Below, piece by piece: positions 3,130-35,521 of a stretch of DNA of 64,000 nt (the first letter of the stretch is position 1; each line of letters begins with the position of its first letter). The stretch is from positions 14,650 through 78,649 of the IMG/VR virus record IMGVR_UViG_3300032053_005312, one strand, 5' to 3'. Below the pieces are notes generated by a model. The model was not told the DNA's origin. It worked only from the letters and a program-made list of their open reading frames with translations, and made no database searches. This DNA comes from a virus. Both the position numbers and the translations under genes were made by a program.

Positions 3130-3202
3130 GCGGAATGCGCATAATGGCTGTTGCCCCTGATTTCCAATCAGGTCTGAATGGGTTCGATTCCCATATTCCG
3201 CA
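3130..3202 (+). tRNA. tRNA-Gly(TCC) with atypical D arm
   Basis: gcggaat/attccgc+A; cctga-ttTCCaa-tcagg; atggg-ttcgatt-cccat. Confidence 0.8.
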
Positions 3203-3206
3203 CTAT

Positions 3207-3278
3207 GCGGGTGTAACTCAATGGTAGAGTACCTGCCTTCCAAGCAGGTTGTTGTGGGTTCGAGTCCCATCGCCCGCT
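3207..3278 (+). tRNA. tRNA-Gly(TCC)
   Basis: Canonical cloverleaf, cctgc-ctTCCaa-gcagg, U73. Confidence 0.95.
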
Positions 3279-3283
3279 CTTAG

Positions 3284-3967
3284 CTAGTTGTCCAAAAACT
3301 CCGGCACGTCAACCGTGTGCGGCACCGGACTGAAAGAATCTCTCCAATGGACAGAATCTTCTAGTCCTTTGTCACGCAAAGCGTTAGCCAATTCAATTTC
3401 TGTTTTGGTTCTGGATGTTTCTGTTCTCCAAATAACTGCTGAGTAGTCGCCACTCCCATTGGAATTACGAAGGATCATGTCTGGAATTTGGCTTGGGCTG
3501 ACTTTAATCTCGCCAAATTTTGTTTTCACAAAACAATCATGATCTCTTATGATGATTTTGGTTGGAGTTCCGAGTTCCGATGTCATATTGTTCTGGTTGG
3601 TGCCTATAATGGAATTCGCTCCACCAAGAACTGCGTTGACACCAAGTCCTGTTCCAATTGTTCTTGCCATATATGGGAACAAACTTCCCCAAGGGATTCC
3701 AGACCCTAACAATAAACCAATGGCCGCAGCACCGAGAGCGCCATACTTCAACATTGTTTTGTTTTTGTCCCACCATTTTCTGGCCCAAGATTTTTCTTTT
3801 GGAGGAACTGTTGGGACTTGGATGCTTTTAGGCATTGGAGGGACTTGTGTGGCGACTTGGCGATTCACAACTTTGTCATCTAAAGCGTTTTGCTCTGCTT
3901 CCACCAAGCATCTGATTCCAATTTCTATATTGCGTCTATTTGTAAACTCTTTGAATGATGTGTTCAT
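3284..3967 (-). CDS. Hypothetical membrane-associated protein
   Basis: 227 aa with a Gly/Ala hydrophobic segment; N-terminal SFKEF. Confidence 0.7.
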   Translation of the reverse strand: MNTSFKEFTNRRNIEIGIRCLVEAEQNALDDKVVNRQVATQVPPMPKSIQVPTVPPKEKSWARKWWDKNKTMLKYGALGAAAIGLLLGSGIPWGSLFPYMARTIGTGLGVNAVLGGANSIIGTNQNNMTSELGTPTKIIIRDHDCFVKTKFGEIKVSPSQIPDMILRNSNGSGDYSAVIWRTETSRTKTEIELANALRDKGLEDSVHWRDSFSPVPHTVDVPEFLDN

Positions 3968-4053
3968 TTACGCCTAATCTTTTATCCATTGGTGGAAATC
4001 TAACATTTTGTGCTGCTATTATATAGAATTAAAAAGAAATATTTGGGTGTTTC

Positions 4054-4437
4054 ATGAAACAAGAAACTGAAGACAAGATAGTTGCAGAGTTCCCGGAATA
4101 CTTTCCTGATTTCCGTGGCGATCCAACTAAGACCTGTCTTGCGTGGGGACTTGCTGTCGGCGAAGGATGGAGTAACTTGTTCCATCAGTTGTGTCGTGAT
4201 ATAAAAGCGACCAACCCGCCTGAAGGCTTCAAGTTCGAGCAGGTCAAGGAAAAATTCGGTGGCTTGCGAGTGTATGCTTCTGGCGGCACGAGCGAGATCG
4301 GCAAATTGATTGATGCCGCCGAAAATGATTCCTATACGATCTGCGAAAATTGTGGAACTAAGGAAGGCGTGAAGTCCGAGGGCGCTTGGATTACTACCTT
4401 GTGTGGCAATTGTCGTGGGACGATCAAAGCCGTATGA
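4054..4437 (+). CDS. Conserved phage hypothetical protein with two CxxC
   Basis: VGEGW..QVKEKFGGLRVY..ICENCG..TLC pattern seen in many large phages. Confidence 0.8.
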   Translation: MKQETEDKIVAEFPEYFPDFRGDPTKTCLAWGLAVGEGWSNLFHQLCRDIKATNPPEGFKFEQVKEKFGGLRVYASGGTSEIGKLIDAAENDSYTICENCGTKEGVKSEGAWITTLCGNCRGTIKAV

Positions 4438-4443
4438 GTAAAT

Positions 4444-4515
4444 GCCGGTGTAACTCAGTGGTAGAGTAGTTGTTTTGTAAACAACCTGTCGGGGGTTCGA
4501 TTCCCTTCACCGGCT
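4444..4515 (+). tRNA. tRNA-Thr(TGT)
   Basis: Canonical cloverleaf, gttgt-ttTGTaa-acaac. Confidence 0.95.
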
Positions 4516-4566
4516 CTTTTTGACAAGCCTGAATTTGTGACCTATGCTTCAAGCAGGAGGCCACAA

Positions 4567-4767
4567 ATGCAAGTGATCTGTGCTTGGTGTAAAAAAGACA
4601 TGGGGCAAAAGGAACCGTTGGAAGAGAATTTGATCTCTCACGGTATTTGCCCCATCTGTGTTGCTGCTATTGAGGCAGAAATACATACTCTTCAGGATAC
4701 TTGCCCTGTGGGTTATTGCGATCCACAATCGGCAGAAATGGTACACCCGACTTTCCAAATATCGTGA
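4567..4767 (+). CDS. Small Zn-ribbon protein
   Basis: CAWCKK..SHGICPIC; strong SD aggagg. Confidence 0.7.
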   Translation: MQVICAWCKKDMGQKEPLEENLISHGICPICVAAIEAEIHTLQDTCPVGYCDPQSAEMVHPTFQIS

Positions 4768-5593
4768 AGTCGCCGCTCTTAGCGTGTACTCGACTGCCAT
4801 AGGAACCGTTAATGGTATTCATGAACGCCCTCAGTTCCGTGGCAGCGATCTTTCCATCTCCGTTCGGGTCGATGGCACTACTTTTCTCCGCCATAGCATT
4901 GAATATCTTTGCCATGATGTTTCCTTGAACATATGCAGCGCTTGTCTCATTGGCCGATGAACTGGCAAACATGGTTATGAGTTCTTGTTGACGAGGCGAC
5001 AAACTTCCAATATCAGGAAGCCCAGCACTCGCATAACAACTCAGTTGCCACCAGAATATTTTCTGATTGTTCTTTTCGGCAATATCAGCGATGACCTTGA
5101 GGACTTCTGATCTGCGTCCCAAGTTGTCTACACTCCCACCAGGGAAGCCGTGGCCAATAGTGAACAATATCAATGTGTCGCCCGGCGTAGCATCAGTCTT
5201 GATATACTGGTTCAAATATTGCGACAATGTTTCAATGGAGTACATTCTTTCAACGGTTTCTGGATCGGCCATTTGGAAGCCCATATACCGACCGTCTACG
5301 AAGTGGTTGCCGACAACCTTGATGTTTAGACCCTTCTCAGAAGCCTTCTGAGCAGCTTTAATGGCTAGATCGGCATCACCGTCAGCCATGTGTTCTCTGG
5401 AGTGCTTGATGCACAGCAGGCGAATCTTGGGGGTTGGTGTTTCGGCACCGTAGTACCGAGTTGGCACCGTGGTCTGTTGAGTTGAAGAATTGACATTGCC
5501 ACAGCCGACAATGCCGACAATGCCGAATATAAATACAAGCGGAAGTATCCACCCGAATAGGCGTCGATCCATCGTATACCTCATTTTGAACAA
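4667..5593 (-). CDS. Predicted lipoprotein with caspase-like (clan CD) peptidase domain
   Basis: Signal peptide ending IVGC; LILFTIGHG and QLSCYA spaced like a His-Cys dyad; EF-hand-like DPNGDGKI. Confidence 0.6.
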   Translation of the reverse strand: MFKMRYTMDRRLFGWILPLVFIFGIVGIVGCGNVNSSTQQTTVPTRYYGAETPTPKIRLLCIKHSREHMADGDADLAIKAAQKASEKGLNIKVVGNHFVDGRYMGFQMADPETVERMYSIETLSQYLNQYIKTDATPGDTLILFTIGHGFPGGSVDNLGRRSEVLKVIADIAEKNNQKIFWWQLSCYASAGLPDIGSLSPRQQELITMFASSSANETSAAYVQGNIMAKIFNAMAEKSSAIDPNGDGKIAATELRAFMNTINGSYGSRVHAKSGDFTIFGKSGVPFLPIVDRNNPQGKYPEEYVFLPQ

Positions 5594-5633
5594 TCCTTGT
5601 TGCTATATCTAGTTATGAAAGTGGGGACGATAA

Positions 5634-6026
5634 ATGGTAATCGTTGGAAGAATATCCTTGGTCGATCACCCTACGGCTGTTCACCTACAAGTTGGCACGA
5701 TTCAGGGCAAAACCGTTGTCGTGGGTCGCCACTATGACGAAGGCACCTTTGGATTTTTCATTCCAAATGGGGCGATTGTGCCGGACAAGCTGGCTGACGA
5801 GATGTGGGTGAAGGGCAAATTGTCCGGCAAAAACAAGGATCGAGTCAAAGCCAGGGAGATGCACGGCGTTTTTTCCGAAGGACTGTTTTACGGCAGTCGG
5901 TACTTTGTGGTAGAATTTGGTGAAAAGGTCTACATCGACAGCCCACGCTGGAACCCTGCCTGGGTTGAGGGTCAAGATGTGGCGAACGAAGTGGGGGTTC
6001 TTGAAAGTGGCCCGCCATCAACTTAA
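5634..6026 (+). CDS. OB-fold tRNA-binding-like protein (resembles N-domain of DRB0094-type RNA ligases)
   Basis: HPTAVHL..VVVG..IPNGAIVP..RVKAREMHGVFSEGL..EGQDVA. Confidence 0.6.
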   Translation: MVIVGRISLVDHPTAVHLQVGTIQGKTVVVGRHYDEGTFGFFIPNGAIVPDKLADEMWVKGKLSGKNKDRVKAREMHGVFSEGLFYGSRYFVVEFGEKVYIDSPRWNPAWVEGQDVANEVGVLESGPPST

Positions 6027-6069
6027 AATACTGAGTCAGTAGTTCATACATAAGGAGTATCGCTTCAAT

Positions 6070-6408
6070 ATGAGTGAAACAATAACGCTCCCGGAGCCAA
6101 AAGAGAAAGTCGATAACAAGACTGATAACAAGACTAAGCGTCAACCACCATATAACGTCATTCTGATGAATGACGACGATCACACGGTCGAATATGTTGT
6201 GACGTTGTGCCAAAAAATCTTTGGCTTCCCAATAGAAAAGGGTCTGTTGAAAGCTAAAGAGGTCCACGAAAAGGGTCGGTCTATTTTGTGGACTGGCGCT
6301 CTCGAATTGGCCGAGTTGAAGCAAGAACAAATTCACGCTGTTGGTAAAGACCCGCAGATTAACCGCTGCAAGGGTAGTATGACTGCGGTATTGGAACCGG
6401 CAGCGTAA
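6070..6408 (+). CDS. clpS: Clp protease adaptor ClpS
   Basis: PPYNVILMNDDDHTVEYVV, EVHEKGRS. Confidence 0.93.
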   Translation: MSETITLPEPKEKVDNKTDNKTKRQPPYNVILMNDDDHTVEYVVTLCQKIFGFPIEKGLLKAKEVHEKGRSILWTGALELAELKQEQIHAVGKDPQINRCKGSMTAVLEPAA

Positions 6409-6418
6409 CAGGAGAACA

Positions 6419-6883
6419 ATGAGAGGAATATTGGTTTCGCTGGCCGTCGTATTCGGTTTTATAATCGTGGTCGCCCTCGTGCATCAAAAGCCAAGCGAGC
6501 CACAGCAGATTGCTGTTATATCAACAGAATCACCCCTTCCCGCTCCCACCCAGGTTGAGCCTCAAGCAAAAATAGATAATCCTCCGGCAAGCATGAAGAT
6601 GCCGGAACCAATGGTAATCACGTCATATAAAGATGTGAATCGCATTCCAGATGCAGGTCTTCGCACCTTCGTTCGCCGCAAGGCAGATTTTCGTCACGAT
6701 AATGTTCTCTTCTTTGAGTGGAAGGGTATTTCTGGCGACAAGATGATTGGTGAGGTTAAAGACAAAAAATACACGATCACTTTACATCCTGCATATACTG
6801 TCATGTTTGGACAAGAAGTTGTGCATCGGCAGATATTTGTGATTCCAGCTTCGTATCCTTACGTTTGCGAAGTCGCCAAGTGA
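6419..6883 (+). CDS. Hypothetical membrane-anchored protein
   Basis: N-terminal TM helix and Pro-rich linker. Confidence 0.7.
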   Translation: MRGILVSLAVVFGFIIVVALVHQKPSEPQQIAVISTESPLPAPTQVEPQAKIDNPPASMKMPEPMVITSYKDVNRIPDAGLRTFVRRKADFRHDNVLFFEWKGISGDKMIGEVKDKKYTITLHPAYTVMFGQEVVHRQIFVIPASYPYVCEVAK

Positions 6884-6905
6884 GTGCATGTCTATACTGT
6901 AGATC

Positions 6906-7139
6906 ATGAACCTTTGGCTTAAACTCGCCGTCGCAAGAAGGATTGCAGCGGAACTACAAATCAAGTATTGTGGCGTTCCTTACGGCGATGACTCCGAGCC
7001 TATCGAAGACGAGATGATTGAACATCTCTGGAGTCATCCAGAATTCGATGAAGATATGTGGCTCAACGTCCATTGGGACGATTTTGAGTGCGTCTGCTGG
7101 GTCCAGGTTGGAGTCGGCCTTGAACTCGTTCCGAGATAA
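6906..7139 (+). CDS. Hypothetical protein
   Basis: ORF in co-directional run. Confidence 0.55.
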   Translation: MNLWLKLAVARRIAAELQIKYCGVPYGDDSEPIEDEMIEHLWSHPEFDEDMWLNVHWDDFECVCWVQVGVGLELVPR

Positions 7140-7141
7140 AC

Positions 7142-7402
7142 ATGGCAAGAATCAGTAAAATCATTTGGATTAAAGATGATGACGGGACGATTTCTTTGGA
7201 CACAATTCCTGGCATGACTCGCCAGGATATATTCCAAGCATCCCTTATCATAACTGACAAAGGCCGCATTCTGAAAAATCGTCTCGGCCCGGACAATCAG
7301 ATAATTCCATCGTTCGATCTCGTGAAGCAAGCTGTCAAGCCGCCCAAGAAATCCAAATATCGTTCGATATACGATTCAATGGATATGAATGCCGATCTAT
7401 GA
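7142..7402 (+). CDS. Small protein with DnaB-like ILKNRLGP segment and KYRSIYD tail
   Basis: ASLII..ILKNRLGP resembles the last motif of DnaB-type helicases. Confidence 0.55.
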   Translation: MARISKIIWIKDDDGTISLDTIPGMTRQDIFQASLIITDKGRILKNRLGPDNQIIPSFDLVKQAVKPPKKSKYRSIYDSMDMNADL

Positions 7403-7650
7403 GCGATTCAATTTGGCTGGAAGCATCAGTTAAATTCCTCAAGACTTCATGGGAAGAAGTCCAAGACGGCGATGTGGTATATTACCAAATCATTCGGCGT
7501 CATCACGACAACAATGCCCACGGGCCATTTATCGTTGTCGATAAAACCCGTGGCAGATTGCGGAATGGAAATGGGGTTGAACTGAATTTCAATTCTGATA
7601 ATCTGCAACTGTTGAAGTTCGACCTTGTGTCCATATTGATGGGCGATTAG
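7399..7650 (+). CDS. Hypothetical protein; stop codon lies inside tRNA-Val
   Basis: ATGA overlap with upstream ORF. Confidence 0.6.
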   Translation: MSDSIWLEASVKFLKTSWEEVQDGDVVYYQIIRRHHDNNAHGPFIVVDKTRGRLRNGNGVELNFNSDNLQLLKFDLVSILMGD

Positions 7651-7713
7651 CTCAGTTGGTTAGATCGCCTGCTTTACACGCAGGAAGTCGGGGTTCGAGT
7701 CCCTCATCGCCTA
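7641..7713 (+). tRNA. tRNA-Val(TAC)
   Basis: gggcgat/atcgcct+A; cctgc-ttTACac-gcagg. Confidence 0.9.
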
Positions 7714-7719
7714 CTCGAA

Positions 7720-7748
7720 TTTACAAGTCATCAATTTCGTGGTATAGT
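7720..7748 (+). promoter_or_regulatory. sigma70-type promoter
   Basis: TTTACA-N17-TATAGT, ATG 9 nt downstream. Confidence 0.65.
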
Positions 7749-7757
7749 TCCATCACT

Positions 7758-8219
7758 ATGGCACAGAAACTTTTTATTCCGAATCTCGGAACGCTGATGA
7801 TTTTGGCTGAAGATTGGACTTTCAAGCTCTATTTTGAGCGAAGAAATGACACCATGATTCAGGCGTTCGGCGGCAAGAAAAGTCGTTGGTGGTGGGGCGA
7901 TAAGCTCAGTGCCGATGATTTCGAGGATGGAAAAATTCCTCCTATTGAATACGAGAAGGCCATGTCCGAAAAAGAGTTAGGCGAAGCCTACCAATCCTTC
8001 CGGGCCACCAATGCTGAAGACAAGCCGTTTATTCGAGTCACCCTGCTGAAAGGCACTCAACTCAAGGTTGACCGAATCTATATTCGCCGAGGCAGGGAAT
8101 CATTCAGTTCTGTGACATTTCGTACAACCAAAATTTGTCCTGAAAAGCGCTTTGCAAGCAAGCGATTTTGGGCTAAACTTCGTGAGGCAAATGAGATCGT
8201 TGCCGATGTTATTGGGTAG
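7758..8219 (+). CDS. Conserved phage hypothetical protein
   Basis: LFIPNLG..LAEDWTFKLYFERRN..GTQLKVDRIYIR..RFWAKL. Confidence 0.75.
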   Translation: MAQKLFIPNLGTLMILAEDWTFKLYFERRNDTMIQAFGGKKSRWWWGDKLSADDFEDGKIPPIEYEKAMSEKELGEAYQSFRATNAEDKPFIRVTLLKGTQLKVDRIYIRRGRESFSSVTFRTTKICPEKRFASKRFWAKLREANEIVADVIG

Positions 8220-8392
8220 TTCGCCCAAGCTATAAGCAACATTCCAAATTGGAGACGGGAGATTTGGTTATGCGACTAAAATCTCCAGAACGTGTCGATG
8301 AAATGGTGCGATTGCTCCTACAATATAAGCAGGAGGTTTGGCCGAAACCGACAACGGATGGTCAACATAGGCACTCAAGCCTCAACTGATAT

Positions 8393-8463
8393 TGCCCGAT
8401 GGTGTAATGGTAGCACAATTGACTTTGACTCAATTAGACCAAGTTCGAGTCTTGGTTGGGCAA
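8393..8463 (+). tRNA. tRNA-Gln(TTG)
   Basis: tgcccga/ttgggca; attga-ctTTGac-tcaat; ccaag-ttcgagt-cttgg. Confidence 0.92.
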
Positions 8464-8465
8464 CT

Positions 8466-8630
8466 ATGGCAAGATCACTACAAAAAGATCAAAGCATCAC
8501 TCAAAAAAATGATGCCAGCAGCATTGGGAACAAGCGTCGGAAGGCTCGGAAGGCCAAGACGAATTCCAATAAACGTGACCGTCAATTTCTAAACAAAGAC
8601 CTAAAGGAACAGATCATGAGCTTGTGCTAA
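8466..8630 (+). CDS. Small basic protein
   Basis: MARSLQK..KRRKARKAK; ATG 2 nt after the tRNA discriminator. Confidence 0.5.
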   Translation: MARSLQKDQSITQKNDASSIGNKRRKARKAKTNSNKRDRQFLNKDLKEQIMSLC

Positions 8631-8652
8631 CTTAAACGAAGCCCGGTCCTCG

Positions 8653-9123
8653 ATGGACAAGGCATTTGAATTTTTCCGTGACCAAATGCGAGGCATCAGG
8701 CATGGAGAAATCTCCACTGGCCTCATCGACACAATCCGGGTGGAAGCATACGAGCAGCGATTGCCGCTCAAGCAACTGGCCTGGACAGCACCAGATAAAA
8801 ATAACCGAATCCTAGTGTCACCGTATGACACAGCTTTATTGGGAGCGATTGATCGTGCCATTAGAGCAGAAGGGTTCAACTCCTATGTTTTCTCCAAAAC
8901 CCAGGTGGTAGTCAATTGTCCGGTTCGTAGTGGCGAAGATACAGAACGGGTGATCCAACAGATCAATAAGCTGGCCGAAGAAGCCAGAGTTGTGATTAGG
9001 AATATCCGAAAGAAGATTCGCCAAAAAGCCGAAGAGGATATAGACAAGCCGCTTCAAAAGTTGACGGATGAAAAGATCAAAGAAATCAATGATCTCGTTG
9101 ACTATAAGGTGAAGTGCTTATGA
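8653..9123 (+). CDS. frr: Ribosome recycling factor homolog (shortened)
   Basis: MDKA..IRHG..IRVEAY..PLKQLA..PYD..AIDRAI..AEEARVVIRNIR..LQKLTD. Confidence 0.88.
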   Translation: MDKAFEFFRDQMRGIRHGEISTGLIDTIRVEAYEQRLPLKQLAWTAPDKNNRILVSPYDTALLGAIDRAIRAEGFNSYVFSKTQVVVNCPVRSGEDTERVIQQINKLAEEARVVIRNIRKKIRQKAEEDIDKPLQKLTDEKIKEINDLVDYKVKCL

Positions 9124-9551
9124 CGCATCCGAATATGATCCCGGTCAGTTGTTCCAACATAGATGAGATGCGTCTGCTGGCACAACAGATGCGTGCTTTG
9201 TGTCTCGTGGACCCCGATAAAGTCGAAGGATATACGGCCTCGACTACTAAGGAAGAATGCGACAAGCGTTCTTTGGATGTTCAGGCAGACATAATCGCAA
9301 GTGGTCATTTGCGATTCATTCACTATCCACCAGATGGTCGTATTGTGAATGTTGTTTACACGCTATTGGAACCTGAGAGTGGCGAAAAGGAATGGAACCT
9401 TTCCATGAGCCATGCCACTCTTGCTGGGCCGAGGCGAGTTGAAGACGATCTTGCCAAGATGATTTGCGAAGCGTTCTTGGATGACTTCTACCAAGAAGTT
9501 GATCCCAAGGCGTATTGGAAAAACGTGAGGCATTTCGTCAAGGCTGCATGA
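9120..9551 (+). CDS. Hypothetical protein
   Basis: ORF overlapping the frr stop; similar in type to 57488 and 23393. Confidence 0.65.
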   Translation: MTHPNMIPVSCSNIDEMRLLAQQMRALCLVDPDKVEGYTASTTKEECDKRSLDVQADIIASGHLRFIHYPPDGRIVNVVYTLLEPESGEKEWNLSMSHATLAGPRRVEDDLAKMICEAFLDDFYQEVDPKAYWKNVRHFVKAA

Positions 9552-9627
9552 AAACATGATGGTTGGTTTTGGTTTGCGTCAATATTATTTATGTTGACTG
9601 CTAAACCAGGGATAGGAACCGATGATA

Positions 9628-9864
9628 AACTCTGTAGTGTAAGCAACACGCCATTCAATGGTCCTCGTGCCGTAATTGGATGGAAATGCTTGGTAAATCC
9701 AATAGGCCACCAGTTTGCTGGGTTCTATGGGCTAGTCCGAGAGAGAGCGAGTCAAAGGGTGGTATTCCCTGTACGCAAATTGACAACGCCTACGGGATTA
9801 ACGACCGGGGCCGATAGTCTAGCAGTCCTTCGGCAGTGGGTTTGACCCCCACAGGGACCAACCA
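9628..9864 (+). ncRNA. Structured RNA region ending in T arm, acceptor strand and ACCA (tRNA-like, long insert)
   Basis: gtggg-tttgacc-cccac-agggacca-acca; 5' partner tggtcct(9659) or tgggttct(9719); several internal stems; no credible ORF. Confidence 0.5.
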
Positions 9865-9887
9865 TCATGCCTTTTAGAAAGCAGAAC

Positions 9888-9995
9888 ATGAAGTTCGCCA
9901 TACTGATCCTTGTGGTGTCGATTTCAGGATGTGTCACACTCGATCCACACAAGATGCCTCCGCTGCATCTTGTGGCAAAACAGAAGGCTAAATGA
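9888..9995 (+). CDS. Small lipoprotein (35 aa)
   Basis: MKFAILILVVSISGC lipobox; translated by hand. Confidence 0.5.
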   Translation: MKFAILILVVSISGCVTLDPHKMPPLHLVAKQKAK

Positions 9996-10278
9996 ACATT
10001 TATAAACCTATTCGTGATGGTCCAGACAGAAAGAAATTTCTCGTTTGGAACTACTTGGAGAATCTAATGCCAACAATCTCATTGAGATTAGCTTGGATGC
10101 CCCCTGGCCACCGGAAAACCGAGATCAGGGTCAATGATTTGAGTGGTTCTTGGCACTGGCAGGCTGTCAGGAGTGGGGATTCTGTCATAGAATAGCCGAA
10201 CTAAGGTTCGCTCAAAGGGAGCGGACACGAATAAGGCGAATAAAGGCAGAGCGGGACCACAGATTATCTGCTAACTTT

Positions 10279-10348
10279 GTTCCGTCCGTTGGATTGCGGC
10301 GTCGAGTTTCCTAAACTTGATAAATTGGTTCGATTCCAATACGGAATA
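10279..10348 (+). tRNA. Non-canonical tRNA-Arg(CCT)
   Basis: gttccgt/acggaat+A; D arm ccgt-tggatt-gcgg; gtcgagt-ttCCTaa-acttgat; attgg-ttcgatt-ccaat. Confidence 0.78.
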
Positions 10349-10378
10349 CTTTGGTGTTTGTTGTCAGAAAGGATTGCC

Positions 10379-14567: not shown

Positions 14568-15131
14568 ATGGCTGGATCGTTAGAAAGATTCGACTTCCAA
14601 GGTCGAAGTCTTGTGCGTGATGTATTCATTGAAACTGGCACCTACCTGGGCCAGTCTTCGGAGAATGCGTCTCGTGCGGGGTTCAAACACGTCCATACCA
14701 TCGAAGTCTCCGACAGGATATTTGCACTGGCTCAAGAGCGATTTGCAGGCCGGTCAGACGTGACGGCACATCATGGCTCCAGTCCTAGTGTGCTGCCAAG
14801 CCTGTGTGATCCTAAGTTGTCAACTGTGTTTTATCTGGACGGCCATTACCAAGGTGGGCCGCTTGATGAAAATGATCCGTTGGTGGGTGAATGTCCTCTG
14901 ATATTGGAGTTGGATATTATTCGAGCGGTGGCCTGGGAAACTCCACCAATCATCATTATTGATGACTCGAAGATATTCACTATTGCGGCTGAAAGTCGTG
15001 ATGACTATTTGAAAAACTGTCACCTTGATCCGGTCTTTTGGCCAAGTTATCAACAGGTGATTGATGCGTTGGGACCGGCCTATACGGTCTACGAAGAAGA
15101 TGATAGGCTGTACTGCATACCTGGGGAGTGA
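14568..15131 (+). CDS. SAM-dependent methyltransferase-like protein
   Basis: FIETGTYLG, HTIE, GSS, FYLDGHY, IIIIDD. Confidence 0.78.
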   Translation: MAGSLERFDFQGRSLVRDVFIETGTYLGQSSENASRAGFKHVHTIEVSDRIFALAQERFAGRSDVTAHHGSSPSVLPSLCDPKLSTVFYLDGHYQGGPLDENDPLVGECPLILELDIIRAVAWETPPIIIIDDSKIFTIAAESRDDYLKNCHLDPVFWPSYQQVIDALGPAYTVYEEDDRLYCIPGE

Positions 15132-26611: not shown

Positions 26612-26834
26612 GAATATATGGTATCGTATTCGCAAGCATCTTGGGATGTTGTCCTATGAGGAAAGTCGCATTGAATCGAGTGAGCAGGTAAAGAACTCGA
26701 TCAGGGCGCAAATGATACATCCCGATGACGTTAATTGGTCTGATGGAATCAAGACCGAGAATATTCCCAAAAAAGATAAACTGCGGCCCAGGTCGATTCT
26801 CGAAGATTGGGGAGTAACCCAAGATTCGGGCTGA
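26604..26834 (+). CDS. Hypothetical protein with RSILEDW tail
   Basis: Coupled ORF. Confidence 0.55.
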   Translation: MAENIWYRIRKHLGMLSYEESRIESSEQVKNSIRAQMIHPDDVNWSDGIKTENIPKKDKLRPRSILEDWGVTQDSG

Positions 26835-26878
26835 ACCTTTTGGCAGCGGCGATCTCTAGTAGTGTAAGGAGAAACATC

Positions 26879-27283
26879 ATGGCAGTAAAGCAAGTTATCG
26901 TTTGGCGACACGATTTAGGTTGTCGAGTTGGCAAGAAGATGTCGCAAGCGGGTCATGCTGCTTTGGCCGACTTGTCGAACACGATTCGTGACAATGTTGA
27001 TGCCGAAGGTAATGTATCGTTCAAGCTGTCGCCTGCACAGTTTGAGTGGTATTTGACGAACTTCCGTAAGATCGTTCTCCGTGTTGACAGTGAGGCCGAC
27101 CTGTTGCTTCTGTACCATCTGGCGCAGGAAGTGGGGTTGCCGACTGAACTCATCATCGACAGTGGTTTGACGGAATGGGATCAGCCCACAAAGACTTGCA
27201 TCGCTATCGGGCCAGCAGAAGATGCCGAGATTGACGAGATCACTGGTGAGCGTGGCCCTTTGGGAAGATTGAAGTTGATGTGA
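26879..27283 (+). CDS. pth2: Peptidyl-tRNA hydrolase, Pth2 type
   Basis: KQVIVWRHDL..GKKMSQAGHA..KIVL..IIDSGLTE..TCIAIGP. Confidence 0.9.
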   Translation: MAVKQVIVWRHDLGCRVGKKMSQAGHAALADLSNTIRDNVDAEGNVSFKLSPAQFEWYLTNFRKIVLRVDSEADLLLLYHLAQEVGLPTELIIDSGLTEWDQPTKTCIAIGPAEDAEIDEITGERGPLGRLKLM

Positions 27284-30281: not shown

Positions 30282-30613
30282 TGGATGCTCAACAACGAGA
30301 GGCCGATCAGCGAGTCATCGCTTCTGAAAGGAAGATGACGGATGCCGAGTTTCTTGAAACCATGTCAAGAACGGACTCGTTGATTGACCATGAGCCTGAT
30401 ACCACCTGTGGCATGTGCCATCACCAATTCGTGATGGCACAGGTCGCTCGTGATATGATCGTTGCAGGCGAGACGGAAGACGTAATCAAGAAGTGGTCTG
30501 AGGAAGCCGAACGTCGTTGGCGTTCATCGAAATTTGTCCAGCTTTGGGACGAAGCTGTTGCTGCCGATAAAGACCCTAATGCGGTCTTCGAGGAACGTGG
30601 TTGGGAGCCTTAA
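30281..30613 (+). CDS. Hypothetical protein
   Basis: TGATG coupling. Confidence 0.65.
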   Translation: MDAQQREADQRVIASERKMTDAEFLETMSRTDSLIDHEPDTTCGMCHHQFVMAQVARDMIVAGETEDVIKKWSEEAERRWRSSKFVQLWDEAVAADKDPNAVFEERGWEP

Positions 30614-30614
30614 A

Positions 30615-31166
30615 ATGTCAGAACATGGAATCGTCAAAGATGGTTGTTGGGTGCCTTTGCCCCCAATCATGACTGTTGAATCCTTGTTGGCTTATGGATT
30701 TAGAGAATGGCCTGTCGGCCAACATGACAAGCATGATCGGCATTGGCAATTTTGCAAGCGTGATGAAAAGGGCAAGAAGCTCTATGTGCAGGTGCGACTG
30801 TGGGCGTTCAGTAAATACAGCAATACTGAACGAACAGTTGAAGACTCATTCGATGCCGATGTTCAGTTTGACATGAATGGTCCCAAGACATTCAACGTCA
30901 ATATGAGCGTCAATAATATGACGCCAGCACAGGTCGTTGAATGGTTCGAGAAAATGCACGACACAATGGGATGTACTCATTACGAGTTGTATTCCGACGA
31001 CCGATACAACGAAGAAGGCGAACAGACTTCTTTCGACTGTGATAAATGTGGAAGATATTTGCCACCAGAAGAAGCTGTCGCACCGTTTCTTTGTCCTGGG
31101 TGCAAGTACGAAACAGAGAGTGGTTTTAAGCAAGTTGCCAGAAAGGTCAAAGTAAAGCGTAGATAG
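30615..31166 (+). CDS. Hypothetical protein with C-terminal Zn ribbon
   Basis: CDKC..CPGC. Confidence 0.65.
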   Translation: MSEHGIVKDGCWVPLPPIMTVESLLAYGFREWPVGQHDKHDRHWQFCKRDEKGKKLYVQVRLWAFSKYSNTERTVEDSFDADVQFDMNGPKTFNVNMSVNNMTPAQVVEWFEKMHDTMGCTHYELYSDDRYNEEGEQTSFDCDKCGRYLPPEEAVAPFLCPGCKYETESGFKQVARKVKVKRR

Positions 31167-31167
31167 C

Positions 31168-31196
31168 TTTACAATTTGGGCCTCTCGTGGTAGAAT
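31168..31196 (+). promoter_or_regulatory. sigma70-type promoter of the release-factor gene
   Basis: TTTACA-N17-TAGAAT. Confidence 0.7.
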
Positions 31197-31232
31197 GTAG
31201 AGGTCCAGCAAAATTTTTTGGAGTAGAGAGAG

Positions 31233-32037
31233 ATGAGAAATGTCAAAATCATGAATCAAGGACACGGCGGCAAATCTTCGGCAACATCCTGTCTTTAGCG
31301 ACTCTAAAGTTCTAATCTTAGAACTGCATGGCGGGGAAGGTGGCGAAGACTCGAAGTTGTTCGTCGCCGATTTACTTGAAACCTATCTCAAATACGCTTC
31401 CAACTGTGGATTAGGCTATGAAGTCCTGACAAAAGAACACGGTCACGCAATTGCCAAGATCACAGGCAAAGGCGTCTGGAAAGCGTTTCAAAACGAACCC
31501 GGCAAACACGTTGTACAGCGTGTCCCACCCACAGAGCGTGGTGGGCGACGGCAAACCTCTATTGTGACGGTTTCTGTCATGCCGCTGCCTCCTGAGAACA
31601 CTCAGGAGCCGCTTCGTGAAAAAGACCTGGACATTATCTTTCAGACGGGCAAGCAGAAGGCAGGCGGTCAAAACGTCAATAAGGTGGCGTCAGCCGTCCG
31701 CATGAAGCATAAGCCGACTGGAATGATGGTGTTCATCAACGGTAGAGATCAGAAGCAAAATCTCGATGAGGCGTTGCGCATTTTGACCTTCAAGGTCAAT
31801 GAGCAAAAGCGGCTCAAGATCGAGGGCGAATACGATCAATCCCGTAAGACGCAGATGATGAGCGGCGGTGATCGAATTGGTGGTAGAGGCGATAAAATTC
31901 GCACCTACAACTTCATTCAGTCTCGTGTCGTGGATCACAGGCTTGGTCGCAAAACGGCAAACATCAAAGAGGTCATGAAGGGTAATTTCTCCATCCTGTT
32001 CAATGATGGAGAAATGTCTGGCAGTGACGACGAATAA
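31233..32037 (+). CDS. Class I peptide chain release factor homolog (RF1-type PxT, no domain 1), predicted +1 frameshift at 31293-31299
   Basis: LELHGGEGGEDSKLF, EPGKHVVQRVPPTE, AGGQNVNKVASAVR, KIRTYNF..RVVDHR; CTT-TAG-C joins ATG31233 to the conserved frame. Confidence 0.85.
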
Positions 32038-32057
32038 CTCGATTTTGCTTAATCGAG

Positions 32058-32093
32058 GGCCAGCATCTTCTTTTGGGGGTGCTGGCCTTTTTT
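32058..32093 (+). terminator. Rho-independent terminator
   Basis: ggccagcatc..ggtgctggcc followed by T6. Confidence 0.85.
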
Positions 32094-32472: not shown

Positions 32473-33399
32473 ATGGCAAACGTAATTAAAGAACTGTACG
32501 ACAAGAGATTGACAAATCTCGGCGGTCATCGCTGGATTCCAGACAACATGCACTACATCACAATGATGGGTAGTGTGGCCTATGGTGTTTCAAACGATAC
32601 GTCCGACACGGACATTTATTCCTTTTGCATTCCACCAAAGGAAGAATTGTTTCCGCATCTTCGTGGCGAAATCGTAGGCTTTGGCGATGCCGTACACGCC
32701 AATAATAGATTCACCAATTACCAAGAACACCACATCAAAGATGTCGGTGCCGAGAAAGAATATGACCTCAACATTTACAATATTGTTGACTTCTTTCAGT
32801 TGGTGATGGAAAACAACCCTAACATGATTGACTCTTTGTTTACGCCTCAATGGTGCGTATTGCATAGCACCAGAGTCGGCCAGATGGTGCGAGAGCAGAG
32901 GAAGATATTCCTTCATTTAGGAAGCTGGAATACTTTCAAAGGCTACGCCTATTCACAGCTAAAGAAGTGTGGGTCAAAGAAGCGAACCGGGAAGCGAAAG
33001 CAAGTGGTAGACGAAATGGGCTTCGACCCTAAATTCGCTTACCATATTGTGAGAAATCTGAATGAAATCGAACAGATTCTCACAGAGGGCGATCTGGACC
33101 TACAGCGAAATAGAGAACAATTGAAGGCTATTCGCCGTGGGGAATGGTCGCTCGAACAGATAGAAGAATATTTCGAGCGGAAAGAACTTGAGCTAGAAAC
33201 TCTGTATAATGAGAATAAAGCCGGTTTACCTTGGGGGCCTAAACACGATGGTTTGCAAGAGAAAGTTAAACAACTTCTCTTTCAGTGCCTCGAAGAACAC
33301 TATGGATCGCTTGACAAATGTATTGTCAATCCAGATGCCGCAGTGATGGCTCTCCGGGAGGTTGGCGACGTTCTCGCAAAATACAGAAACCTTCTATGA
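32473..33399 (+). CDS. Pol-beta superfamily nucleotidyltransferase (RlaP/YcgL-like)
   Basis: GSVAYG..SDTD, NNPNMIDSLF, KGYAYSQL, FDPKFAYH, LKAIRRGEW. Confidence 0.85.
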   Translation: MANVIKELYDKRLTNLGGHRWIPDNMHYITMMGSVAYGVSNDTSDTDIYSFCIPPKEELFPHLRGEIVGFGDAVHANNRFTNYQEHHIKDVGAEKEYDLNIYNIVDFFQLVMENNPNMIDSLFTPQWCVLHSTRVGQMVREQRKIFLHLGSWNTFKGYAYSQLKKCGSKKRTGKRKQVVDEMGFDPKFAYHIVRNLNEIEQILTEGDLDLQRNREQLKAIRRGEWSLEQIEEYFERKELELETLYNENKAGLPWGPKHDGLQEKVKQLLFQCLEEHYGSLDKCIVNPDAAVMALREVGDVLAKYRNLL

Positions 33400-34929: not shown

Positions 34930-34987
34930 GTTTCTTTCCACCTAAGACTCTATTAGATGAGTGAACTTTGCGAAAATTGGAGCGTGC

Positions 34988-35521
34988 ATGAAAGATTTTG
35001 AACGGACATTGTTAATTGGGGTCGTATTTGATCTATCGACGTTGCACACCAACGGTACTCGGAACTTGGATATTGTAAAGGATGTTCTTCTGAAGAATGT
35101 CTTGGATGTGAAGCCGTCATCGAAAATATATGTTTCTCATCCAAATTGGCATACAATCCCACGGGATCAGGGGGAAAGCACATATTATGTGATCTCCTAT
35201 CAAGAGCCGCCAAATTTCTATGTTGATTCTACTTTGAAAAACGCCGTCACAGTTGTTGGCGAGTATGTCGAAGATTGTGATAAGTATATGTTTTTGATTA
35301 CAGATCGTTTTCAAGCACCACGCAACTATCAATATCGCAAGGGATTTTTGGCAAATAATATCAGAGGCTATAGTACGAAGATGTGTGTCTTTGGCATAGG
35401 AGATGGTTATGACAACATGAATCTCAAATCATTGGCCGAAGAATACGAGGCACATTTTTCACACTTGTCAGACGCCGCCTCGCTGTCTGATGAACTTACC
35501 AAATTGTTGACGGGATACTAA
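34988..35521 (+). CDS. Degenerate vWA-like protein
   Basis: VVFDLS, FLITD, VFGIGDGYD..LKSLA. Confidence 0.55.
   Translation: MKDFERTLLIGVVFDLSTLHTNGTRNLDIVKDVLLKNVLDVKPSSKIYVSHPNWHTIPRDQGESTYYVISYQEPPNFYVDSTLKNAVTVVGEYVEDCDKYMFLITDRFQAPRNYQYRKGFLANNIRGYSTKMCVFGIGDGYDNMNLKSLAEEYEAHFSHLSDAASLSDELTKLLTGY

Follow-up and report, generated by a model that had tools for sequence, protein, structure and literature searches.

A prfB-like +1 frameshift cassette predicted in front of an RF1-type release-factor gene of a huge phage

A +1 frameshift at a CUU codon followed by a stop is the textbook mechanism of RF2 autoregulation. The prfB cassette has the form SD-N3-CUU UGA C: a short leader of ~20–25 codons ends in a CUU placed directly before an in-frame stop, the stop is followed by C at the +4 position, and the +1 frame encodes a class-I release factor. 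A 2025 survey found this motif with UGA in 98.6% of 8,164 genomes and with UAG in none, and detected no programmed frameshift in prfA across >12,000 genomes (PMC12421855). Among viruses, the release-factor genes Mimivirus R726 and Megavirus mg280 combine UGA readthrough with a +1 frameshift at CUU UAG C or CUU UAA C, and the CUU UAG C of the Mimivirus gene shifts +1 in E. coli (PMC3521657). RF1 and RF2 genes are also carried by recoded phages (the Lak, Jade and Agate code-change modules), and the paper on these factors mentions frameshifting nowhere (bioRxiv 10.1101/2021.08.26.457843). Papers on huge or recoded phages include phage release factors and likewise leave frameshifting unmentioned. 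Finally, PrfH (RF-H) is an RtcB-coupled, accessory third class-I factor of some genomes that lacks domain 1 and keeps the GGQ motif; we know of no frameshift described for prfH.

The locus analyzed here lies in a 64,000-nt stretch of viral DNA (the window), which corresponds to positions 14,650 to 78,649 of the 78.6-kb IMG/VR record IMGVR_UViG_3300032053_005312. An initial reading of the letters alone (the sequence-only reading) had proposed that a phage RF1-type factor is produced there by a prfB-like frameshift at CTT-TAG, and had known of no such cassette for RF1. The latter agrees with the prfA result of the survey above and with our own literature search, which found no published description of a frameshift in a phage RF1 gene.

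The elements of the prfB cassette listed above recur in the window, namely the length of the leader, the CUU directly before an in-frame stop, the +4 C and the class-I release factor in the +1 frame. Unlike in prfB, the factor is a domain-1-less protein of RF1 type, UAG serves as the stop (in the family as a whole UGA, UAG or UAA), the leader lies outside the conserved protein, and the clade of the window has no internal SD. Many relatives, the window not being one of them, do share with prfB a GG[AG]GG 3 nt 5′ of the CUU, and about a quarter of relatives differ from it in having two tandem sites. The resemblance to the Mimivirus and Megavirus genes extends to the heptamers: the window has the same CUU UAG C, and its relative L003 the same CUU UAA C. 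As in those genes, a viral termination factor stands behind recoding and the stop varies between close relatives, and their two recoding events in series have a parallel in the double-site relatives. However, the giant-virus factors are of the archaeo-eukaryotic eRF1 type, come from amoebal viruses with another translation system and are unrelated in sequence to the factor of the window, which is a bacterial-type RF1 homologue of a phage. With PrfH, the window protein has in common the missing domain 1, the retained GGQ and the role of an accessory factor, whereas its score against the PrfH model is far below the cut-off (TIGR03072, 44.5 bits versus 166.65), its RF1-type Q...PxT...T loop is kept and no RtcB was seen among the scanned ORFs of ≥80 aa between 26.5 and 36.3 kb. 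Like the factors of the recoded phages, it is a phage-borne class-I factor among translation genes; unlike them, it belongs to a phage that uses the standard code.

A release-factor gene with a split reading frame

Completeness of the source record was estimated at ~16% (CheckV), which at 78.6 kb places the window in a huge phage. The 98 ORFs of the window are closed by TGA (43), TAA (31) and TAG (24), and coding density under table 11 is 87%, so that the phage can be assigned to the standard code. An alternative genetic code was ruled out by these three working stops, by the coding density and by the lack of a suppressor among the seven tRNAs of the window. Several translation-related genes surround the factor gene, including those for PTH2, an ArgRS-like protein, an RlaP nucleotidyltransferase and tRNAs (Table 1). 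Two further ORFs, one at 34961-35518 and one of 210 aa at 30534-31163 that looks by eye like a zinc ribbon, gave no Pfam match. As a functional clue the gene neighbourhood was uninformative, neighbours being in common with the closest relatives only, and a nucleotide search of the locus against a phage collection returned no match.

Table 1. Features of the release-factor locus, its neighbourhood and related loci
Feature	Position	Strand	Basis or remark
Sigma-70-like promoter, TTTACA-17 nt-TAGAAT, upstream TG (extended -10)	31168..31196	+	10/12 matches
Shine-Dalgarno GGAG	31220..31223	+	kept in L003
Leader ORF0, 21 codons MRNVKIMNQGHGGKSSATSCL, then TAG	31233..31298	+	ATG31233 start
Predicted shift site TGT CTT TAG C	31290..31299	+	+1 slip would skip T31296
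Release-factor body, +1 frame, 246 codons and TAA	31297..32037	+	Pfam, NCBIfam, structure alignment, dN/dS
Rival route ATG31240-MSKS-TGA31252, factor frame	31240..31254	+	
Intrinsic-terminator-like hairpin and T run	32055..32090	+	16 pairs, 8 G-C
PTH2 peptidyl-tRNA hydrolase	26807-27283		
Short ArgRS-like protein, 438 aa	28965-30281		
RlaP-type nucleotidyltransferase	32473-33399		
Cluster of six tRNA genes	3130-10349		
Tandem CTT-stop sites in relatives	1370-1452 of L001		also L011-13, L017, L030-32, L034, L037, L039
Tandem CTT-stop sites, further loci			L042-45, L051, L068, L071, L095, L104
Chromosomal copy with CAC CTT TAG C (L129)	8311-8925 of L129		Obscuribacter-type MAG, 759-kb contig

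The factor gene is bracketed by a promoter-like element, nearly identical in relative L003, and a terminator. The frame that encodes the factor is open from 31255 and is closed on its upstream side by TGA31252. Its first ATG, GTG or TTG is TTG31357, and the conserved LILELHGGEGGEDSKLF block (31312-31362) precedes this called start, as the sequence-only reading had maintained when it placed the beginning of the homology upstream of TTG31357 and noted that neither ATG nor GTG follows the TGA before the conserved block. The same holds for its description of a promoter, a GGAG, the 21-codon frame from ATG31233 to CTT TAG C and an exact +1 entry into the factor frame, all of which are present. The GGAG is spaced 9 nt from ATG31233 and 16 nt from ATG31240. 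At the shift site, TGT would occupy the E site, the slippery CTT (31293-31295) the P site and TAG (31296-31298) the A site, with C31299 at the +4 position. Skipping T31296 continues with AGC GAC TCT AAA..., which reads SDSKVLILELHGGEGG and joins the leader and factor frames into a predicted product of 267 aa (P0122).

The protein matches positions 97-194 of the Pfam PCRF domain, that is, its C-terminal half, together with the RF-1 domain. Among the NCBIfam models, RF1 scored highest with 208.8 and 196 bits, ahead of prfB (130) and PrfH (44.5), although both RF1 scores are below the respective equivalog cut-offs (TIGR00019, 208.8 versus 400; NF001859, 196 versus 423). Alignments to solved structures ranked the families in the same order (E values of 1e-40 for RF1, 1e-23 for RF2 and 4e-13 for PrfH) and span residues 103-334 of Thermus thermophilus RF1, corresponding to domains 2–4. 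Domain 1 is missing and the leader is unrelated to it. By scores and alignment, the predicted product is thus an RF1-type class-I release factor without domain 1, consistent with the assignment to RF1 that had initially been made from the PPT motif (31525-31533). Full-length RF1 has ~360 aa, and its domain 1 makes the contact with RF3 and the L11 stalk. RF1 without domain 1 has been reported to be active both in vitro and in vivo (PMC1586002).

Further motifs of the family are in place, with GGEGGED at 31330-31350 and the GGQ of the peptidyl-hydrolase motif at 31663-31671 (AGGQNVNKV). The decoding loop VQRVPPTERGGRRQTS aligns with Q181, P184-V-T186 and T194 of T. thermophilus RF1 and keeps the Q...PPT...T pattern. 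A universally conserved His, H193 in T. thermophilus RF1, stacks on the stop codon. This conserved decoding-loop residue is Gln in the window (RRQTS), and the family has mostly Q and sometimes H at this position. In addition, the Glu at the helix tip is replaced by Asp in the window protein. The release-factor body is under purifying selection, with dN/dS values of 0.07–0.17.

Conservation of the CTT-stop in the family

For the comparative analysis, 14 viral, 80 metagenomic and 14 MAG loci were fetched, and counts were made on 81 non-redundant viral or metagenome loci that include the N-terminal region and share 40–98% identity. We scanned the 40 codons 5′ of the GEGG motif for a CTT followed by a stop and derived the expectation from shuffles. 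Globally, such a CTT-stop was found in the frame that requires a +1 shift in 65 of the 81 loci, compared with 2.1 expected for these 81 (~30-fold enrichment), and all 13 of the 13 family members in MAGs carry one as well. Its position is narrowly confined, being 11–12 codons before GEGG in 50 of the 65. In 42 of the 65 site-bearing relatives the factor frame has no ATG, GTG or TTG before GEGG, and the base after the stop is C at 42 of the 65 proximal sites and at 79% of the distal ones. Short ATG-started leaders equivalent to ORF0 are present in relatives. Members that lack a site mostly have a direct ATG start 8–12 codons before GEGG, at the landing place of the slip in the others. In three loci (L021, L022 and L091), the site is only 4 codons from GEGG, and the residues of the conserved strand come from the end of ORF0 (AVCL), so that the transframe fusion is required there.

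The nearest relative, L003, is part of a 340-kb viral contig and encodes a factor that is 98% identical to that of the window; there is near identity in promoter and SD as well. Despite ~45% divergence, the L003 leader keeps the ATG, a length of 22 codons and TGT CTT TAA C. The factor frame of L003 has neither a start nor a readthrough route, as it is closed by a TGA that overlaps the leader ATG. Across the 11-member clade of the window, TGTCTTT plus stop is the sole invariant stretch, with variable sequences on both sides. The sequence-only reading had called for a check of the reads for an indel: contigs from four other runs, which represent other samples, cover 31203-31303 and contain none. 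No RNA run is listed among the public runs that contain the locus.

Together, these counts strongly support a programmed slip rather than an error, and with it the prediction that the RF1-type phage factor needs a prfB-like +1 frameshift, as had been proposed for CTT-TAG. The segment 31233-32037 very probably forms a self-contained transcription unit from which a 267-aa RF1-type factor lacking domain 1 would be produced via this programmed frameshift.

The leaders themselves vary strongly. Between the window (31233-31289) and L003 (2934-2996) they are ~45% different, whereas promoter, SD and body are 92–100% identical (dS of the body 0.084), so the leader alone is either hypervariable or was replaced in an allele swap. 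A 9-nt tandem repeat within the leader ORF of L023 (1098-1199) encodes GST ~7 times; evidently the length of the leader is free to vary by multiples of three.

A CTT-stop in a frame that does not lead directly into the factor was found in 22 of 81 loci against 2.3 expected, and these are the distal sites of double cassettes, which are present in 19 to 22 relatives. In this arrangement, an ORF0 without a start codon is entered through the distal CTT-stop from a short MSKK-type leader, the order being MSKK-type leader, GG[AG]GG-NNN-CTT-stop, a linker of 10–23 codons and the second CTT-stop. The tandem stop pairs include UAG+UGA, UAA+UGA, UGA+UGA, UAG+UAG and UAA+UAG. At all 19 of the 19 distal sites, and at 39 of the 65 proximal ones, an SD-like GG[AG]GG lies 3 nt 5′ of the CTT (background 15%), the arrangement that is canonical for prfB.

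The window, which has one site only, is a member of a clade that lacks the internal SD. Upstream of its CTT, GCAACATCC TGT CTT contains no purine-rich run, so the caveat of the sequence-only reading that the internal Shine-Dalgarno of prfB is not visible is correct for this clade. The site of the window lacks this SD-like element, but it has the slippery CTT, the C after the stop and a +1 frame that is open to 32037, as a prfB cassette does. A stimulatory RNA structure was considered for this SD-less site and rejected on the fold results, since the alignment fold of the window clade gave 6 pairs with no covariation and the single-sequence fold at the window site a z of -0.64. With neither an internal SD nor a conserved RNA structure in the clade, the efficiency of the shift may be low.

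Stop identity and the regulatory logic

If the mechanism of prfB applies, ribosomes would start at ATG31233, translate the 21 leader codons and pause when CUU occupies the P site and UAG the A site. At that point the leader peptide would be terminated by an RF1-type factor, or else the peptidyl-tRNA-Leu would re-pair from CUU to UUU and translation would resume at AGC31297 in the factor frame. On the model of prfB, termination should compete with slipping, and the yield of the phage factor would fall as the capacity for UAG termination rises, a capacity to which host RF1 and probably also the phage factor itself would contribute. We infer a feedback loop from this analogy: the cassette would gauge termination capacity and limit the factor to a low level as long as termination is efficient.

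UAG is read only by RF1-type factors, which makes an RF1 counterpart of the prfB circuit mechanistically plausible for the window. UGA, on the other hand, should not be read by an RF1-type factor, and UAA is the strongest terminator and is read by both release factors; a +4 C provides a weak-terminator context. Of 76 family members, 48 have TGA at the single or proximal site, 27 have TAG and 1 has TAA; at distal sites, by contrast, UAA accounts for about a third. In a check of CTT-TAG conservation, as suggested from the sequence, the CTT, a following stop and the leader frame were therefore found to be kept and the identity of the stop was not. On the tree, the stop changes at least 12 times, with at least 6 changes forced by well-supported branches, and the subclade of the window (TAG, TAG, TAG, TAA) is nested inside a TGA clade. 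Stop identity shows no covariation with the decoding loop, identical loops being found with TGA and with TAG cassettes. The mirror-image circuit of the sequence-only reading, in which the phage factor is made only when UAG termination is weak, is thus plausible at the UAG of the window, whereas these changes and the lack of any tracking by the loop speak against it as a property of the family. At best, a strict RF1 mirror circuit holds for some lineages, that of the window included. As the family uses UGA, UAG and rarely UAA, sometimes in tandem, the conserved principle would be a slow stop, read by a single release factor, after CUU.

The same data allow for a frameshift that is real but not part of an RF1-specific loop, which we regard as quite possible, if short of probable. 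The cassette would then be a fixed attenuator for low expression or a generic gauge of host termination, and the choice of stop would tune the efficiency of the shift without being matched to the specificity of the factor. The mixture of stops and its many changes on the tree, the combination of the same recognition loops with either TGA or TAG, the nesting of the window subclade among TGA sites, the near absence of UAA from single and proximal sites and the +4 C at 42 of 65 are all in line with such a function. Against it, a CUU-stop inherently pits termination against slipping, and with UAG the output must depend on RF1-type activity. Furthermore, TAG is kept throughout a Melainabacteria-type clade of ~10 members, and the stop labels are clustered phylogenetically: in 0 of 200 label shuffles, with the three site classes taken together, were as few changes needed.

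A wider reading of the feedback loop, which we offer tentatively and hold to be somewhat doubtful, is that the cassettes are modular sensors of termination capacity, by which a back-up factor is made only when host termination fails. A single CUU-UAG, as in the window, would report on RF1 and a single CUU-UGA on RF2, while UAG or UAA followed in tandem by UGA would amount to an AND gate for both release factors. The back-up factor, lacking domain 1, would be independent of RF3, and the trigger could be, for example, phage takeover or a ribosome-directed defence. If this were true, the window would hold the first RF1-specific autoregulatory frameshift loop. In a bolder variant, the factor with the His-to-Gln loop would read all three stops, in which case any stop could serve.

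In either reading, a CUU-stop frameshift, held to be absent from RF1, would here be associated with an RF1-type factor and with UAG, UGA or UAA, single or doubled. The relatives provide a natural allelic set of cassettes with which to ask what kind of selection acts on the stop of such sensors, and this set also bears on why phages carry a truncated termination factor of their own and on termination capacity as a contested resource in infection.

Other routes into the factor frame and further homologues

The factor could in principle be made without any frameshift by initiation at ATG31240 and readthrough of UGA31252, either by a near-cognate tRNA-Trp or because the UGA is recoded. This route, already pointed out by the sequence-only reading, does exist in the sequence of the window, and five relatives without a CTT-stop (L048, L065, L073, L078 and L079) have an SD-ATG leader in the factor frame that is followed by TGA AG[AG] G. 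This third architecture could represent UGA readthrough or a non-canonical restart, so other members of the family may be gated by readthrough; the window does not have this TGA-AGAGG context. In addition, the 16-nt spacing of ATG31240 from the SD, the status of TGA as the commonest genuine stop of the window (43 of 98 ORFs) and the failure to find a suppressor tRNA speak against it. The route is also not kept in the 98%-identical L003, which has no such ATG and whose factor frame is shut at the leader ATG, and 19 of the 65 frameshift-type relatives have an in-frame ATG ahead of the closing stop, in no regular pattern. For the window, we consider readthrough very unlikely.

Equally improbable in our view is a start that involves no recoding at all, at TTG31357 or an in-frame near-cognate codon, giving an N-terminally shorter protein. 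Gene callers do predict such a product, with 226 aa. A start at TTG31357 would, however, leave the protein without its first strand and without the helix tip GGEGGED, both of which are invariant in the family. The part lost corresponds to residues 103-122 of T. thermophilus RF1, including the U1-reading residues G116 and E119. There is no SD upstream of the TTG, homology begins exactly at the landing codon of the slip, and the invariance of CTT plus stop would be left unexplained. A broken gene, either a pseudogene or an assembly indel, would also show up as a 5′ frame break, and is excluded for practical purposes because the same break and heptamer recur in ~80 independent assemblies, the sequence 3′ of the break is under purifying selection and the contigs of the four other runs are free of indels.

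Gene callers systematically mis-annotate the genes of this family, with N-termini that are truncated or extended by junk.

Some relatives depart further from the common layout. In L004, L006 and L008, which are AT-rich phages of 630–735 kb, short release factors have a direct ATG start and an in-frame TGA in the body, which suggests UGA recoding or gating. L007 (LR745208.1, 1413-2070) encodes another release-factor homologue without domain 1 that has lost the PxT/SPF loop, and it carries GGAGGGGT CTT TGA C within domain 2, after 37 codons that already hold the AEGG motif.

The family is not purely viral, as it comprises huge phages and a few bacterial lineages, including Obscuribacter-type MAGs in which normal RF1 and RF2 are retained as well. 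In one of these, the chromosomal copy listed in Table 1 is located among cellular genes for ECF sigma and anti-sigma factors, MsrAB and a TPR protein. Besides the short factor, this genome encodes two full-length release factors and has an ArfB-like gene. Within the phylum of the cyanobacterial MAG G003, a short paralogue was found in 1 of 201 sampled genomes, that one being the genome on which the search was centred.
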